Shown here: positions 23,360 through 32,000 of the stretch, piece after piece
How the letters are laid out: the number at the start of each line of letters is the position of its first letter
Numbering within the stretch: the stretch's first letter is position 1
Assembly (NCBI GenBank): GCA_024275415.1
Contig: JAJRZD010000059.1
Location: 30,001-62,000 of the forward strand
DNA: 32,000 nucleotides
Reading direction: 5' to 3'
From: an archaeon
GTDB lineage: Archaea; Asgardarchaeota; Thorarchaeia; Thorarchaeales; Thorarchaeaceae
Position numbers and translations under genes: made by a program
Notes under the pieces: model-generated
What the model was told of the DNA's origin: nothing
The model's database searches: none
What the model saw: the letters and a program-made list of their open reading frames with translations, nothing else

Positions 23360-23884
23360 TCAATCATAGTTTCTCCAGTAATATTCAAAGTCGTCAATCG
23401 ACTGAAAATCCCCTTCTTTTCGTAGGATTCGATCTAAATCTCTTACAGAACCTATGTGTTTTGTCGTTCCTGTGCCAGTCGATTTCGATGCGAGCCTCCA
23501 TTTCTCAGCAACCACGACATATCTAATATCGACCATATTTACACTTGATTCAGCTGGTTCCCACTTGTATATCAAACCAACAATCACATGCCTTGTGAAC
23601 TCGTTGTATGGTCTTTTGCAGCCTCGCATTTTAACATCTGGATTCCTGAAGTATCCCGCACGACTACCCAGCGTAAAACCTGATATGCTATTCACGCCTT
23701 TCAGTCTACAAGTTTTTATATCAAATGCGACCAATTCATTTCCAAAATCCGCACCAGAAATCGTGAGATCCGGATACTCCCTATCGCCACCTCTCTCATA
23801 AGACAGTCCTAAATCATCCAGCGTCTTTTCAATTTCATACACAGTCATTTCTTCAAGTATTGCTGTAATTAGGGTTGATTTCAC
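23360..23884 (-). CDS. EcoRV-family type II restriction endonuclease-like protein (N-terminally short, no cognate methyltransferase in the window)
   Basis: YPD...FDIKT catalytic core, FTLG, EKW..A...GTGTTKHIGS and G.F.S.D.FEYYWRNY mirror EcoRV motifs. Confidence 0.85.
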   Translation of the reverse strand: MKSTLITAILEEMTVYEIEKTLDDLGLSYERGGDREYPDLTISGADFGNELVAFDIKTCRLKGVNSISGFTLGSRAGYFRNPDVKMRGCKRPYNEFTRHVIVGLIYKWEPAESSVNMVDIRYVVVAEKWRLASKSTGTGTTKHIGSVRDLDRILRKEGDFQSIDDFEYYWRNYD

Positions 23885-24264: not shown

Positions 24265-25227
24265 ATGTCCTCACGAACAGACCGGAAGAAGCGTGCAGAA
24301 AGACACGCGCGAGATCAAGAGGAGTTCAGGTGTCCAGAATGTGGTGGTACTGATGTTGTTCAAGACCTTGAAAAAGGTGAAAGGATCTGCGCCACCTGCG
24401 GACTCGTTTTGAGCGACCACAGGATCGACACCGGGCCCGAATGGAGGGCATTCACCTCTGACGAGAAGGATGCTCGGTCAAGAGCGGGTGCCCCGACAAA
24501 CTATGCAATCCATGACAAAGGCTTGTCAACTATGATTGACTGGCGCGACCATGATTCATCTGGAAAGAAGTTCTCCGCTAAGAAGCGTTCGGAGATCTAC
24601 AGGCTTCGCAAATGGCAGATTCGAACCAGAGTCCACTCCTCTGTCGATAGGAATCTGGCACAGGCGATGTCTGAGCTCGAGAGGCTGTCCTCACAGCTGG
24701 GACTCACGAAAAGCATCAAGGAGCTTGCAGCTCTCCTGTACAGGAAGCTCATCATCCGAAGACTTGCACGGAGCAGGTCGATAGATGCGATGGTCGGAGC
24801 TGCGATATATGCGGCGTGTCGGCTGAGGGAGTCACCAAGGTCGCTTGAGGAGATCGCTCGACACTCACGCGTCACCAAGAAGAAGATTGGTCAGCACTAC
24901 CGGCTTCTCGTGGAGAAGCTCAAGCTCAGGATGCCCATCTCGGATCCTGCGAACTATGTTCCGAGATTCATCACACAGCTTGGACTTCCTGGAGAGGTAC
25001 AACAGAAGGTGCTGGAGATTCTGACGCTGGCAAAGGAGAACCGAACACTTGTGACTGGCCGTGACCCGCGAGGGCTGGCTGCAGCAGCGATATACATCGC
25101 GTCAATCCTCACTGATCACAGGGTGACCCAGCGAGATATTGCCATGGCTGCGGGAGTCACAGAGGTAACAGTTCGCAACCGATACAAGGAGCTCGTGAAC
25201 AAACTCAACATCACGATGGCTCCCTAG
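24265..25227 (+). CDS. tfb: Transcription initiation factor IIB (TFB), copy 1
   Basis: Zn ribbon CPEC...CATC, B-reader GPEWRAF, RNLAQA, two cyclin folds, HTH TQRDIA.AAGVTEVTVRNRYKEL. Confidence 0.97.
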   Translation: MSSRTDRKKRAERHARDQEEFRCPECGGTDVVQDLEKGERICATCGLVLSDHRIDTGPEWRAFTSDEKDARSRAGAPTNYAIHDKGLSTMIDWRDHDSSGKKFSAKKRSEIYRLRKWQIRTRVHSSVDRNLAQAMSELERLSSQLGLTKSIKELAALLYRKLIIRRLARSRSIDAMVGAAIYAACRLRESPRSLEEIARHSRVTKKKIGQHYRLLVEKLKLRMPISDPANYVPRFITQLGLPGEVQQKVLEILTLAKENRTLVTGRDPRGLAAAAIYIASILTDHRVTQRDIAMAAGVTEVTVRNRYKELVNKLNITMAP

Positions 25228-25314
25228 GAGATATCCTAGTAGGTGATCATCACAACCCACGAATCAACGCACGCGACATGTGATCGCACTACATAGGAGA
25301 GAGATCTAAACAAT

Positions 25315-26295
25315 ATGGTATCTACACTTGGAATAGGAATGAAGCACTCACGGAAGAGAAGGAACACCAACAACATTCTGGAGGGGCACATCAAAGCCTG
25401 CTCTGAATGTGGTGGGACTGAGATCATCCGTGACAACGAGAAGGGGGAAATTATCTGCGCGACATGCGGTCTGATCCTAAGTGACCATCGCATCGATTCT
25501 GGTCCAGAATGGAGAGCCTTCACCAGTGATGAGAAAGACGCACGTTCTCGAACAGGAGCACCAACCAACTTTGCCCGCCATGACAAGGGACTTTCCACTG
25601 TCATCGATTGGCGCGACCATGACTCACAAGGGCGTCGCTTTACTTCGAAACAACGCGCTCAGATATACCGCCTGAGGACGTTGCATATCAGGACTCGAGT
25701 CCACGGTTCGCTCGACCGGAATCTTGCCCAGGCAATGACCGAAATGGACAGACTAGCATCGCAGCTAGGACTCTCTAAGGGTATAAAGGAGCTATCAGCG
25801 ATGCTTTATAGGAAGCTCATCGTCGGACTGAGAGCCAAGATCCGTTCAATCGACGCGACTGTCGCAGCATCAATCTATGCGGCTTGCAGACTGAGGAAAT
25901 CACCGCGCTCTCTTGAAGAGATTGCCAAGTTCTCACCAGTTTCTAAGAAGAAGATTGGTGCACACTATCGGATGCTAGCGACCAAGATGAAACTGCGAAT
26001 GCCTATCCCTGGCCCGGAGAACTACGTTTCAAGGTTCATCTCAGACCTAGGCCTTCCACCGGTGGTACAGAAGATGACCCTTGAAATCATCGAGCGAGCC
26101 AAGGAGGTCCGGAACCTTGTGTCCGGGAGAGACCCCCGGGGTCTTGCAGCAGCATCTATCTACATTGCGGCAATCATCACGGATCAACGAGTCACACAGC
26201 GAGCAATTGCTAGGACTGCTGGGGTCACTGAAGTCACTATCAGGAATCGTTACAAGGAGCTCGTGAAGAAGCTCGAACTCGCTATAGTTCCTTAA
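25315..26295 (+). CDS. tfb: Transcription initiation factor IIB (TFB), copy 2
   Basis: CSEC...CATC, GPEWRAF, RNLAQA, GRDPRGLAAA, GVTEVTIRNRYKEL. Start is 25315 or 25339. Confidence 0.97.
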   Translation: MVSTLGIGMKHSRKRRNTNNILEGHIKACSECGGTEIIRDNEKGEIICATCGLILSDHRIDSGPEWRAFTSDEKDARSRTGAPTNFARHDKGLSTVIDWRDHDSQGRRFTSKQRAQIYRLRTLHIRTRVHGSLDRNLAQAMTEMDRLASQLGLSKGIKELSAMLYRKLIVGLRAKIRSIDATVAASIYAACRLRKSPRSLEEIAKFSPVSKKKIGAHYRMLATKMKLRMPIPGPENYVSRFISDLGLPPVVQKMTLEIIERAKEVRNLVSGRDPRGLAAASIYIAAIITDQRVTQRAIARTAGVTEVTIRNRYKELVKKLELAIVP

Positions 26296-27584: not shown

Positions 27585-27691
27585 GAGTTGGATCGGTATT
27601 CAAAGTAAATGCATACAAGTGATAAGAACTCGATCAGAAAGACTGCACTATCCAACAAGCAAGTACATATGGTTCTACCCAGTGAAAAGGA

Positions 27692-28099
27692 TTGAAGGTG
27701 GAAATGTTGAATGCTGAAAGGGGGTTTGGCAAAGCACAGATGTATAGAGATATTGCCCTCGAGTCAATTGAAAAGAAAAGATTCGACTTTGCCGGATTCT
27801 CAGCTCAACAGGCAGTAGAATTCTTTCTTAAAGGATTCCTGATCGAACTTGTAGGAGTTCGGCCATACACGCATTCGCTCCCTGAACTGTTAGCGGCCCT
27901 TAACGAAGCAGGTATAGAAAGTCCTCCCGATGTCAAGGACTGTGTGAAAAGTCTTGCAGAACATTACATTCAGGCCCGCTATCCTGATGCTCGCGTGACA
28001 GAATATGACCACGAGGAGGCAATTGAAGCCATCAAGTGCATGGAGGTGACCCTCGATTTCCTTACCAAAATTCATACGGAGTCTTCGAAAGGCAAATGA
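27692..28099 (+). CDS. HEPN domain protein (COG2250-type)
   Basis: AGFSAQQAVEFFLKG, THSLPEL, HYIQARYPD. Confidence 0.88.
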   Translation: MKVEMLNAERGFGKAQMYRDIALESIEKKRFDFAGFSAQQAVEFFLKGFLIELVGVRPYTHSLPELLAALNEAGIESPPDVKDCVKSLAEHYIQARYPDARVTEYDHEEAIEAIKCMEVTLDFLTKIHTESSKGK

Positions 28100-28484
28100 A
28101 AGGAAAACAAAAGACTTCGATGACTTCGTGAGCCTGCTAAGAGACCGTCTGATAGAACGCGGGAGCGCACTCCTCTTTGGCTCAAGAGCGCGTCAGGACT
28201 CTCACTGGATAAGTGATTTTGATGTGCTTGTGCTACATGATAATGTGGACAACGCTGACTCATTACGTTACTGGGCAAGGGGATACAGTGTAGACCTCTT
28301 TGTCATTGACTTGGCATCGACCAAGGAAGAGATAGAAAGAATGAACACTGTGCTCCTTGATGCATTGCTAGAAGGCGTCATCTTGTTCGATGATTTGGAC
28401 ACGATAGAGGAACTGAAAGAGTTCACCCTGGATATGGTCAGGACGCGAGGATTAAAAAGGCGTAAAGATGGGGGGTATTGGTAA
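28056..28484 (+). CDS. Minimal nucleotidyltransferase (MNT); start uncertain (ATT 28056 or GTG 28128)
   Basis: LLFGSRARQD...SDFDVLVL, VDLFVI, LEGVILFD. Frame is open upstream to an ATT preceded by GGAGGTGA. Confidence 0.85.
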   Translation: MSLPKFIRSLRKANERKTKDFDDFVSLLRDRLIERGSALLFGSRARQDSHWISDFDVLVLHDNVDNADSLRYWARGYSVDLFVIDLASTKEEIERMNTVLLDALLEGVILFDDLDTIEELKEFTLDMVRTRGLKRRKDGGYW

Positions 28485-28828
28485 CAGCCGTTCGAAAGAA
28501 AGTCCCCACTATCGGCCTGCAATGGTTCATCTATCCTAGGATAAGGCTAATACGGAAACTATCTTCCGGAGATACTCCGGAATCAAACAGAAACAGCAAA
28601 AGGGCGGGGACATATGTCATTTTATCATAACCTTTGACAAAATACGAACTCCGATCATCGGGATGTGATAGTACACATGGTCATGCAATACAAGCCATTT
28701 CATTTCATTGCATATTCTGTTTGTCTTTGCAAGTCCTAGTAGCTCGATTAATGTCATATAGATTGTATATGCTCATTACATCCAAATGATGATCCTCCTA
28801 CCCCGCCTCCTGAAAACCGATAGGCCTG

Positions 28829-30247
28829 TCACGCTAAGAACGTGATGGCTTCCTCTTCGAACAGGCACCTTGAGAGGTCTACGTATGGGTCCACCATCAG
28901 GGACACGCCCCGCCCGAAGGTTATAGTACAGTCAGGTGCGTCCTGCATGAGGGGGGACACCACCACAGGCACCGGGCGTTTCGGGTCTGGGTTCTTGTCA
29001 CTATGGAGGTACACGTGCCTGAGCGTGGCACCGCCCACGTGATCCAACTGGACTGGGGACGCCCCTCTGAAGTCACTCAGGTCAAGGTAGAGGCGTTCCA
29101 ACGACTTGAACTTTACCAGGGGGAACAGGGACTTTTCTGACGTGGGGGCATAGTGAAGTTCCCGCACTCCCGCGCAGTCGTCCACAGTCAGGAACCATAC
29201 CCAGTCAAGTCCAGCCTTGCCGGACAGGGACAGACGGTTGATGTTGGATGCACGCATGAAGGCATGTGGGTCGAAGACTGGGACATCACACCCGTAGGCG
29301 AACTGTGTCAGGTGAGGGAACGTCCCCTCTGAGGGCACGAGTTTGTCCCCGTCCAGTCCGCACTCGTCCACGACCAGCACTTCGAGGTTTTTGTGCTGGG
29401 CGAGGGACGGTACGTTGTGCAGCACAACACCCATCAGGTCAAGAGTCATGATCTGGGTACATCCAGACAGGATGTCAAGGTCGAAGGGATGCCTCCCCCT
29501 GAAGCGTTCGATACTGCGGACTATGAGGGGGCGGTAGGTGCCCACGCATACATGACGTGCCTCCTGCGAGTCTATCGTTTTCTTGTCGTAGGAGTGGGGC
29601 AAGATCGACAGCACCCTGCCGTTCCATGTCGGGTCAAGGTCCGACATATAGTGCTTCGCAGCCGACATCTCGGCAAGGCACTCTTTTTTCTGTTCATTCC
29701 ACAGGTGTACAAGACCTCTTAGTGCTAGGAGCAGGGTTCTACCCGAGGAACTGCTCCTGACCTGACGGGCATAGGAGATGACCTCCTCGAAGCCTTTCCG
29801 TTCCTCAACAAGGACGTCCCCGAGGGCCTCGAAGGCGGACATGACCACCATCACCTGTTGGAGGAGTTCGTTGTCGTACGTGTCCCCTTGCCTCGCAAGC
29901 AACCCCATGGTGTACTCGCCGCGGTCGTATAGTTCTGCGGTCCTGAACCGGGTATCATCGATGCTCATTACAGCGTGGTGCAACACCCTGATGTTTGCTT
30001 CCTTCAGTACGGGCACGTCGGACAGGGATATGGCTGCTCCTTTCCTGAGTAGAGACCGTGGGGCGAAGGAGTCTCTTTGTCCCCCCATATGTTCTTGGAG
30101 GGTGTGTCCGTTGTAGGTGTGGTAATTGATCCTCTGGAGTGCCTTCAAGGCGTTGCCAAGGTAGTCCTTGGGCACCAGCATAGTACAGATGTCCTTGTAG
30201 AACGCGTACGCTGCAGAATAGGGGTCGGACTTGTCGAAAGGAAGCAT
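28829..30247 (-). CDS. Helical-repeat plus leucine-rich-repeat protein, GC-rich
   Basis: 472-aa ORF. C-terminal LRR-like units (DLDILSGCTQIMTLDL, LAQHKNLEVLVV, FKSLERLYLDLS). TPR-like helix LALRGLVHLWNEQKKECLAEM. Confidence 0.7.
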   Translation of the reverse strand: MLPFDKSDPYSAAYAFYKDICTMLVPKDYLGNALKALQRINYHTYNGHTLQEHMGGQRDSFAPRSLLRKGAAISLSDVPVLKEANIRVLHHAVMSIDDTRFRTAELYDRGEYTMGLLARQGDTYDNELLQQVMVVMSAFEALGDVLVEERKGFEEVISYARQVRSSSSGRTLLLALRGLVHLWNEQKKECLAEMSAAKHYMSDLDPTWNGRVLSILPHSYDKKTIDSQEARHVCVGTYRPLIVRSIERFRGRHPFDLDILSGCTQIMTLDLMGVVLHNVPSLAQHKNLEVLVVDECGLDGDKLVPSEGTFPHLTQFAYGCDVPVFDPHAFMRASNINRLSLSGKAGLDWVWFLTVDDCAGVRELHYAPTSEKSLFPLVKFKSLERLYLDLSDFRGASPVQLDHVGGATLRHVYLHSDKNPDPKRPVPVVVSPLMQDAPDCTITFGRGVSLMVDPYVDLSRCLFEEEAITFLA

Positions 30248-30277
30248 CGTGTATCATCAATCTTTCTTTGAAAGCTC

Positions 30278-30988
30278 TTATAAAGACAAGCACTCGTCCC
30301 CGACAGTTGCCAACGGACAGGCACCACTCGTTGGCAACTCTGTGAGGGGGATGTAAATACGACTGGTCCTATAACCAATAAACAACGAAGCTATTATGCT
30401 TTGTAGGATGGACATACCCCTGTGTACCCCCTGTCTGGCTGCCAGGCGATATATGTGTAATGCCCTATTAATGATCGCAGGGGGTGTTTGTAGTTGGGAT
30501 GTGAACACGCGCATATCGCTCCACGCCTGTATCAGGTTGCGTTGGAACGAATCAGTATGGACTTCTGTAGTACGGTGGCGCTGCCAATGCGAAGCAGTAC
30601 CTATTTTGAAGAAGGGGGCGACATTCCCTCGTATCCTATGGGTTTTGTCGAGGTTTTGTGGTACTTTTGGTTCCCACAGCCAGTCTGGAAAATCCCCTTC
30701 GTTACCGAAGACGAGTCCACAGTTATCCTGTTCATGTCCTAAGTCGTCCTGTCCCGTTTGGACGAGTATCTCCTGCATGTCCCTGCTCTCGTGTCCTTTC
30801 TCGTCGATATGGAACTTTTTGAAGTAACATACGGGACACTGTAGTGGATAGAGTTTTTTTACTGGGTCTTTTTGTGCTTCGTAAATCGGTTCTTTGCAAT
30901 GACGACAGACGAACCGGAGGACTACAGGTTCACCTACCACCGGTGTGATGGCAGTGATTTTCCCCAGCACCTGGATAAATTTGTCCTA
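30278..30988 (-). pseudogene. Chimeric ORF: MCM OB-fold/Zn-finger fragment fused in frame to a degenerate TFB core
   Basis: H*DKFIQVLGKITAITPV...FVCRHC...Q...PLQCPVC...F...DMQEILVQ (MCM-type), then NCGLVF...RNLIQA...L..P...RALHIYRLA..QG..RGMSI...IASLFI.YR (TFB cyclin fold 1). Confidence 0.7.
30305..30339. repeat. Perfect 11-bp inverted repeat with 13-nt spacer
   Basis: AGTTGCCAACG (30305-30315) and CGTTGGCAACT (30329-30339). Confidence 0.9.
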
Positions 30989-31007
30989 ATGTCCTGCGTC
31001 ATGGTAG

Positions 31008-32000
31008 TTAATAGAAGACCACTTGAACATCCTTCAACCGCTCCCTCAACGGCCATGTTTTATCCATGACCGTGGATCGATACTTTTCTGCAATCCGAAT
31101 GTTCACATGTGCATCCACGGTCAGGTATTGGAACTCTTTGCAGTTCATTAGAGGAGTGAGATCCAATTCATCAAGCATATTGTCCTCCAGCCGTAGATTT
31201 TTCAATGTCGTCAGTTCGGATAGAGGAGAAAGATCGATGGATTCAAGCCTATTGCCATCCAACTGTAGATTCTCCAATGTCGTCAGTTCGGATAGAGGAG
31301 AAAGATCGATGGATGAAAGGCTATTCCCGTGAAGGTCAAGATATTCCAATGGGCACTGTGAAAGAGGAGTCAGATCCAACTTTCTCACGTCAGCACATCC
31401 TGCGACTGTCAAACGTTCAAGGTTCTCACACTGAGGTAATGTGACAGGAGTTCTGTTTTTGACGATACTACCAAGCATATGCATCGGATGAAGCAAATCC
31501 CCTAAGAACAATGTTCGCAGTGACCTTGAACCTGACAATGGCGTGAGATCAAATTGATAATGTGTCACTGTGTTGATGAAGAGTCGCTCTAGCGAGGGAC
31601 ACTCTGACAGTCCGTCTAAAATGATGGACTCTATAGGGCCCTCTACCTCGATGTTCTTAATACTCGCACTCCGCCTCAACGGGCTCAAATCCACCGAGTT
31701 CATCTGTGAACCACGAACTTGAAGATTCAACCTCTCAAAAGTCGGGAGCTTGCAAAGTCCTTCTAAATCGATTGCCTGCATGTTCTGAGCTCTGCTCACT
31801 GAGAACCCCCGAAGGTTGTCAAATTTGCTGAACAAACTAGTGTCAATGAATTCATTCTTAATGTAGAAAGAGGAGATATTCTCGATATTCGGAGCAATGT
31901 CTACGACTTGTTCTACAAGTTTTTCATCAATGTATATCTGTGAGAAAGTGCAATTTTTTATATCATCAGGCACTTCCTTGACTGTGAGCGTGCCATCTTT
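31008..32000 (-). CDS. Leucine-rich repeat protein (5' end lies outside the window)
   Basis: Repeated (I/F/L)DL(S/T)PL...L..L.L units. Frame is open to base 32000 (KDGTLTVKEVPDDIK). Confidence 0.92.
   Translation of the reverse strand, partial: KDGTLTVKEVPDDIKNCTFSQIYIDEKLVEQVVDIAPNIENISSFYIKNEFIDTSLFSKFDNLRGFSVSRAQNMQAIDLEGLCKLPTFERLNLQVRGSQMNSVDLSPLRRSASIKNIEVEGPIESIILDGLSECPSLERLFINTVTHYQFDLTPLSGSRSLRTLFLGDLLHPMHMLGSIVKNRTPVTLPQCENLERLTVAGCADVRKLDLTPLSQCPLEYLDLHGNSLSSIDLSPLSELTTLENLQLDGNRLESIDLSPLSELTTLKNLRLEDNMLDELDLTPLMNCKEFQYLTVDAHVNIRIAEKYRSTVMDKTWPLRERLKDVQVVFY
31203..31314. repeat. 40-bp perfect direct repeat with 72-bp period inside the LRR gene
   Basis: CAATGTCGTCAGTTCGGATAGAGGAGAAAGATCGATGGAT at 31203-31242 and 31275-31314, matching one 24-aa LRR unit. 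Confidence 0.95.

Follow-up and report, generated by a model that had tools for sequence, protein, structure and literature searches.

An open reading frame (ORF) at 30278-30970 on the minus strand of the DNA analysed here, a 32,000-nucleotide (nt) window from a Thorarchaeaceae genome of the Asgardarchaeota (GenBank assembly GCA_024275415.1, contig JAJRZD010000059.1; G000:C38:30001-62000), joins in one frame a piece of an MCM helicase gene and a piece of a gene for the transcription factor TFB. The host genome comprises 3.53 Mb in 127 contigs, with 47% GC and an estimated contamination of 4.5%, and all positions given below are those of the whole window. The chimeric ORF counts 230 codons from a GTG start to a TAA stop, and it appears in the public record as an annotated protein. 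We regard it, with a probability of about 0.7, as a young and non-functional mosaic of two gene fragments derived from foreign DNA of the mobile-element type, that is, as a pseudogene relic located in a variable island of the genome. An earlier note on this DNA had pointed out the uninterrupted frame, which is indeed open from the GTG onwards, and had offered two explanations for it. The first one, a relic of a mobile element, is supported by an MCM fragment 55% identical to a metagenomic MCM (P0002) carried by what looks like such an element, and by the location of the ORF inside a 6.6-kb insertion specific to this strain. The second one, a domain-shuffled factor linking replication and transcription, finds no support in an ORF showing cut folds, a nonsense codon, no natural start and no second copy.

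The MCM-derived fragment spans 30728-31015 (minus strand) and corresponds to residues 109 to ~205 of P0002, a protein of 687 residues. It begins on the last codons of the upstream gene LRR341 ('SIN', window position 31015), comprises the first strands of the OB fold, the complete C4 zinc finger and the OB strand that follows it, and ends at GHEQ (residue 81 of the ORF). An MCM N-terminal domain had already been claimed for this region, and the Pfam model MCM_OB gives a match there, at ORF residues 3-76, that reaches 23.1 bits (E 6.5e-5; cut-off 24.8) for the ORF alone and 31.1 bits, above the cut-off, when read-through to 31030 is allowed (model positions 8-88 of 126). A scan of the whole genome with the same model returned the locus at 32.1 bits with one TAG inside. 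A single close relative of this half, P0002 (E 1.4e-22), emerged when 1.84 billion representative proteins were searched exhaustively with HMMER, and BLASTP shows the two to be identical at 51 of 92 positions (55%), with no gaps, over P0002 residues 109-200. An alignment of 15 MCMs shows that the chimera retains the zinc-finger cysteines, all four of them, and the family-wide conserved residues kept by P0002. The finger itself (30827-30907, minus strand; ORF residues 22-48), of the CxxC-19-CxxC type with all four cysteines kept, has a predicted fold that matches MCM N-terminal domains. About one third of the OB fold is absent, and the alignment to the N-domain of the Pyrococcus furiosus MCM covers residues 110-191 of 257. 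No match to the Pfam models MCM, MCM_N or MCM_lid was obtained for the ORF, which lacks subdomain A, the AAA+ ATPase and the lid. Weak matches in PHROGs fall on a viral helicase family (phrog_10371, positions 120-200 of 683) and on a 293-position family of unknown function.

The host genome encodes an MCM of its own on another contig (C43), which is only 26% identical to the fragment and 40% identical to P0002, so that a recent copy of the host gene was rejected as the source of this half. A search of P0002 residues 100-215 against 400 genomes of the phylum gave no other match above 28% identity. When the full P0002 sequence was compared with the host genome by tblastn, residues 109-200 were found at this locus and all other similarity fell on the host MCM, indicating that the rest of the MCM gene is gone and not frameshifted. 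Judged from these identities (55% to P0002 versus 26-28% to the MCMs of the host and its relatives), the MCM piece is foreign. Relatives of P0002 itself are scarce: none were detected in IMG/VR, the representative genomes of GTDB gave only ordinary MCMs at 30-37% identity, and the metagenomes of JGI a single chance match of 24 residues on a contig of 61% GC.

The contig carrying P0002 (Logan, SRR13394437; 50.6 kb) encodes two ParA/CbiA proteins, a ParB-type helix-turn-helix protein, an ArdC-N/MPTase protein, an AAA ATPase, an Arf-like GTPase and many unnamed ORFs, and from this gene content it looks like a plasmid or an integrative and conjugative element (ICE). It also carries a TFB of 294 residues, 1.9 kb away from the MCM gene and on the opposite strand. 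A passage of PMC6563490 citing Krupovic et al. 2010 describes the MCM gene as often captured by archaeal mobile elements, and the conjugative elements of thaumarchaea all carry a TFIIB gene near ParB (PMC6563490), while TFB is encoded by several Asgard viruses and unclassified elements (10.1101/2021.07.29.453957). As a hypothesis, both halves of the chimera could come from one and the same element.

The TFB-derived fragment (30326-30589, minus strand; ORF residues 128-215) comprises the end of the B-linker (WQ.R..VH), the RNL motif and helices 1-4 of the first cyclin fold. The Pfam TFIIB repeat is matched at residues 144-209 (positions 3-68 of 92) with 23.2 bits, just under the cut-off of 23.6. 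A lineage-specific profile built from 18 TFBs of the genome, its relatives and metagenomic matches gives 56.7 bits over positions 120-198, in the frame of the chimera only. The comparison by hhalign with an alignment of 16 TFBs yields a probability of 97.7% (E 1.8e-12, 79 columns), with TFB residues 124-202 corresponding to ORF residues 136-215, and pairwise alignments extend the match upstream as far as WQ.R..VH. Every residue invariant among these 16 TFBs is kept within the TFB span of the chimera, and a sequence search of the PDB retrieved the TFB core of Pyrococcus woesei (1D3U and 1AIS, chain residues 3-75). The first cyclin fold that had been described as full is thus present, but its fifth helix is cut by the stop codon. 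A second cyclin fold, or the helix-turn-helix that recognises the B recognition element (BRE), gave no signal in three frames of 28829-31060 or in the read-through into the downstream ORF472.

Between the two fragments lies a stretch (ORF residues 82-127; 30590-30727, minus strand) that begins with NCGLV, is predicted to be disordered, and shows no significant match to the TFB reader/linker or to MCM in any frame. The region corresponding to the B-reader and linker is ~22 residues shorter than in TFBs; PEWRAF and GL.T.I are unrecognisable, and WQ.R..VH is present. The earlier note had placed the junction at ~30750 and had seen immediately after it the remnant of a TFB zinc ribbon, and neither of these proposals could be maintained. 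The residues DDLGHEQ align better with MCM (..EDM.GG.E / ..L.GGEQ), which suggests that this '..DDL-GHEQ' end may still be MCM-derived and moves the junction to ~30725-30730. As to the ribbon, the Zn_Ribbon_TF model (PF08271) is not matched in the ORF even at E 10, and the supposed remnant comes down to CGLV: the one TFB-type cysteine is that of NCGLV, and profile positions 36-123 score 1.1 bits, a value reached by 16 of 500 shuffled sequences.

The TFB half is 29-34% identical to the five TFBs of the host and 29-39% identical to any TFB. In a maximum-likelihood tree of a region of ~100 residues, the branch of the fragment measures 4.3 changes per site, 11 times the median of 0.39, and has no supported partner. 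A recent copy of any of the host TFBs was rejected because of this low identity and of the long, unaffiliated branch. The host genome encodes at least five full TFBs, among them the two intact ones that had been noticed near the chimera, which were confirmed as a tandem pair at 24265-26295 (plus strand). This pair is kept in all the congeners examined, and its duplication is old, since the orthologues are 80-96% identical versus ~68-75% between the two copies. A separate metagenomic contig of 7.7 kb (L047; Logan SRR33452759) encodes a 381-residue TFB (P0004), placed on the long-branch side of the TFB tree, amid a tight row of 15 small ORFs with no Pfam match, and resembles a virus or a small mobile element.

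Upstream of the called start, the homology to MCM extends over another 16 codons, across an in-frame TAG at 30986-30988 (minus strand) and up to the stop codon of LRR341, so that the ORF has no natural start. The TAG faces a leucine of P0002, in agreement with the earlier proposal that the MCM match crosses this codon and that it was probably a TTG. The called GTG is a mechanical choice, and the first in-frame ATG is codon 65. The TAG is a true stop: its recoding as pyrrolysine was rejected, as the genome contains neither a match to PylS nor a tRNA with a CUA anticodon, and TAG makes up 34% of the terminal stops of long frames versus 36% of the single stops lying between two long open stretches, that is, no excess. 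One in-frame TAG was also observed in a congener (G005:C6:144639-146018), in the orthologue of the oxidoreductase gene that borders the block described below. The host does possess a tRNA-Sec with a UCA anticodon (aragorn, c[8832,8922]), and some in-frame TGA codons may encode selenocysteine.

The strain-specific block that contains the ORF occupies 27585-32000 and runs on past the window to ~34226, with genes for HEPN and MNT proteins, ORF472, the chimera, LRR341, ORF124 and a type II N6-methyltransferase. It is interposed between ORF160 and a gene for a pyridine-nucleotide-disulfide oxidoreductase. Three congeners (G001, G004 and G005) share the gene order ORF527, oxidoreductase, ORF160, NUDIX, TFB2 and TFB1, and in them ORF160 and the oxidoreductase gene are adjacent (G001 and G004) or 0.8 kb apart (G005), as compared to 6.6 kb in the host. 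Similarity to the DNA of the congeners ends at ~27570 and resumes at 34227, and, tandem units inside LRR341 aside, the 6.8-kb stretch occurs only once in the genome. The composition of the block is patchy, with a GC content at third codon positions (GC3) of 0.46-0.72 among its genes and a rise from 0.51 to 0.72 between the chimera and ORF472. The site is also variable in G005, which besides the gap of 0.8 kb between ORF160 and the oxidoreductase gene shows 9.6 kb between NUDIX and TFB2.

Within this block the chimeric ORF is tightly flanked by co-oriented ORFs, LRR341 being located 37 nt upstream and ORF472 30 nt downstream. LRR341 (31008-32000, extending to 32033 beyond the window; minus strand) matches the leucine-rich repeat (LRR) models LRR_8 and LRR_4 of Pfam, and the beginning of the MCM homology overlaps its stop codon. 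ORF472 (28829-30247, minus strand) is an orphan of 472 residues in the same frame as the chimera, with no Pfam, PADLOC or PHROG match and no TFB signal, and with a GC3 of 0.72 as compared to 0.51 in the chimera and ~0.50 in the genome. The chimera had been described as embedded between two LRR genes, which holds for the upstream one, but the downstream ORF has no Pfam LRR match, its LRR-like signals being faint and limited to the C-terminal half. A TATA-box-like sequence, TTTATAA (30278-30284, minus strand), is found 31-37 nt before the ATG of ORF472, and its last three bases are the stop codon of the chimera; from its position and sequence, it could possibly be the own promoter of ORF472.

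The fusion was not encountered a second time in 40 relatives, in 400 genomes of the phylum or in libraries of 5.8 and 1.84 billion proteins. In the 40 relatives, the chimera matches ordinary TFB and MCM genes but never both in one frame, and ORF472 has no match at all. Homology searches with the chimera and with ORF472 returned self-matches only, and the chimera, ORF472 and LRR341 each form a singleton cluster in a collection of ~15 billion proteins. A word-index search for longer fused forms came back blank, but P0002 was also missed there, and this is a weak negative. PADLOC shows no family for the chimera, LRR341, ORF472 or ORF124, and no description of an MCM-TFB junction was found in the literature searched.

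The most likely pathway to the present ORF would start with an MCM gene of an element that lost its first ~108 codons at the place where the LRR gene now ends, and everything after codon ~205, and that was joined by chance and in frame to a divergent TFB gene. The TFB gene would have lost its zinc ribbon before or at the joining, and would have been cut in helix 5 of the first cyclin fold, at the point where ORF472's promoter region starts. A subsequent change of TTG to TAG would have broken the MCM frame, and gene callers would now see the stretch from the first GTG after the TAG to the next stop. This origin as a relic is suggested by the fact that both pieces are cut inside folds, in a frame with no natural start and with a nonsense codon within the homology. 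It is also suggested by the foreign nature of the MCM piece, by the strain-specific insertion and by the lack of any similar sequence elsewhere, as well as by the patchy composition of a block that carries a HEPN-MNT pair and a type II methyltransferase. The long branch of the TFB piece, and a structural prediction that is confident only for the zinc finger and the helices, point in the same direction.

Several observations weigh against a relic of this kind. The frame is open over 230 codons, with a single stop over the 250 codons of homology and neither insertions nor deletions with respect to P0002, and it keeps the four zinc-binding cysteines and every TFB-invariant residue of ORF residues 128-215. 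A predicted ribbon followed by ~75 disordered residues and a cyclin fold is also arranged like the N-terminal two thirds of a TFB. As to the mobile element, the window shows neither a tRNA nor flanking repeats and the genes of the block include no integrase, and the TFB encoded near P0002 was not among the matches of the exhaustive search of 1.84 billion proteins, which gives no support to a common source of the two halves. The open frame and the intact key residues fit a very young relic and a protein under selection equally well. A random base change in coding DNA creates a stop in about 4% of cases, and one new stop in 750 nt would roughly correspond to ~0.03 neutral changes per site, that is, to a very recent event, which is plausible because the island is restricted to one genome. 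With so few changes, decay following the fusion cannot explain the unrecognisable residues 82-127, which either were already atypical in the parent TFB or have a different origin.

AlphaFold2, run with a small two-part alignment, confidently predicts residues 11-60 (three strands and the zinc finger, with a predicted local distance difference test, pLDDT, of 75-93) and residues 140-230 (four helices), while pLDDT stays below 50 at residues 1-9 and in most of residues 62-138, including the OB strands outside the finger. In Foldseek, the helices match the first cyclin folds of TFB and TFIIB (1D3U_B at 1.8 Å over 93 columns), and the strands match the zinc subdomain of MCM N-terminal domains (4YWL and 1LTL, 41-47 columns). 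The product, if made, would therefore be predicted to consist of a zinc ribbon, a floppy linker of ~75 residues and one cyclin fold, with no OB fold formed. The description given in the earlier note, a TFB whose zinc ribbon is replaced by an MCM zinc finger, is a fair one for this predicted architecture, except that the second cyclin fold is absent.

Such a domain-shuffled protein could act as a decoy or modulator of the transcription of the host or of an element, with a cyclin fold able to sit on TBP without recruiting RNA polymerase or reading the BRE, and its translation could start at the GTG at 30970 or by re-initiation after the TAG. We consider this possibility unlikely. It would account for the open frame of 230 codons with its conserved cysteines and TFB-invariant residues, for the two confidently predicted domains joined by a linker in a TFIIB-like layout, and for the co-oriented neighbours 37 and 30 nt away, and archaeal mobile elements do carry TFB-like regulators. 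However, no homologue has the junction, and hence there is no sign of selection; the OB fold is incomplete and so is the fifth cyclin helix, the would-be leader has a nonsense codon in its MCM homology, and the start is the mechanical GTG, with no in-frame ATG before codon 65. Moreover, the second cyclin fold, needed for the stable binding of TFB to TBP-DNA, is missing, and no PADLOC family is matched. A more specific version, in which an expressed TFB mimic with an MCM-type ribbon tethered to one cyclin fold would sequester TBP or bridge MCM rings to the transcription machinery, seems slightly more doubtful still; if true, it would represent a regulator that has only just arisen by domain shuffling and that an element or a defence island would use.

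It is improbable that the junction arose during assembly, by joining the reads of two molecules, one of an element with an MCM gene and another of a TFB gene. The 127 contigs, the estimated contamination of 4.5% and the patchy composition along the block would be in line with such an artefact. Nevertheless, the MCM piece measures only 288 nt and has other sequence on both sides, so that an artefact would require two or more wrong joins within 1 kb; the 6.8-kb stretch, leaving aside the tandem units of LRR341, has no further copy in the genome that could mislead the assembler, and the block is framed, on a single contig of 86 kb, by genes that are syntenic in three congeners. Least probable of all is a single longer gene, now broken (MCM-OB / TFB core / helical / LRR), that would comprise both the chimera and ORF472 and be read across the TAA and two TGA codons. 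The two ORFs share a frame 30 nt apart, and near the TAA a few residues look like the end of helix 5 of TFB, but read-through adds nothing to the TFIIB score, hhalign stops at residue 215, a profile of TFB positions 200-320 matches neither the read-through nor residues 1-120 of ORF472, GC3 rises abruptly from 0.51 to 0.72 between the two, and the TATA-like box precedes the ATG of ORF472. On the basis of the score, the profile, hhalign and GC3, a TFB core continuing into ORF472 was rejected.

The chimera shares with P0002 and the MCMs of archaeal mobile elements the entry strands of the OB fold and the C4 zinc finger, but holds ~97 of 687 residues, with no DNA-binding hairpin, ATPase or lid and with a nonsense codon inside. 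With archaeal TFB and eukaryotic TFIIB, including the copies of Asgard viruses and elements and of thaumarchaeal ICEs, it shares the end of the B-linker, helices 1-4 and the invariant residues, whereas the zinc ribbon, a detectable B-reader/linker strand, the second cyclin fold and the BRE-binding helix-turn-helix are absent. N- or C-terminally reduced TFB paralogues are present in the Sulfolobales, such as Tfb3, which keeps the ribbon and the reader and lacks the core; they are conserved among species and consist of whole modules. These partial TFBs are able to act on transcription, so a partial TFB need not be inert, but the chimera differs from them in being unique to one genome and in having a ribbon from another protein family. 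Finally, the block resembles decayed integrated elements and variable 'defence islands' in being strain-specific between syntenic genes and in its toxin-antitoxin-type HEPN-MNT pair, methyltransferase, orphans and mixed composition. It differs from them by the lack of an integrase, att repeats and a tRNA target, and because its LRR and orphan genes match no known defence family.

Most likely, then, the chimera is one more gene-fragment scar in a variable island. As a relic, it would record that a rare MCM-bearing element, otherwise known from a single metagenomic contig, once reached a probable Asgard lineage, and it would show how in-frame joins of fragments end up annotated as 'hypothetical proteins'. 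Singleton domain architectures should accordingly be read with caution, and not as functional fusions. Were the ORF expressed, it would be a very young gene, born from shuffled modules of replication and transcription, in the archaea most closely related to eukaryotes.

Some other features of the locus and the genome can be mentioned. The interior of LRR341 contains two tandem units of 72 nt (31149-31292, minus strand), 79% identical, which are duplicated pairs of leucine-rich repeats. The spacer of 344 nt at 28485-28828 shows no further gene fragments in six frames, and the type II methyltransferase of the block has no recognised endonuclease partner. The host genome gives at least 20 matches to Arf-family GTPases, as compared to none in 14 control prokaryotes, which would point to an Asgard archaeon. 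Elsewhere in the window, an ORF of 174 residues at 23360-23884 (minus strand), which may be N-terminally short, matches the profile of the EcoRV family of restriction endonucleases (positions 31-215 of 244, E 1.2e-21).

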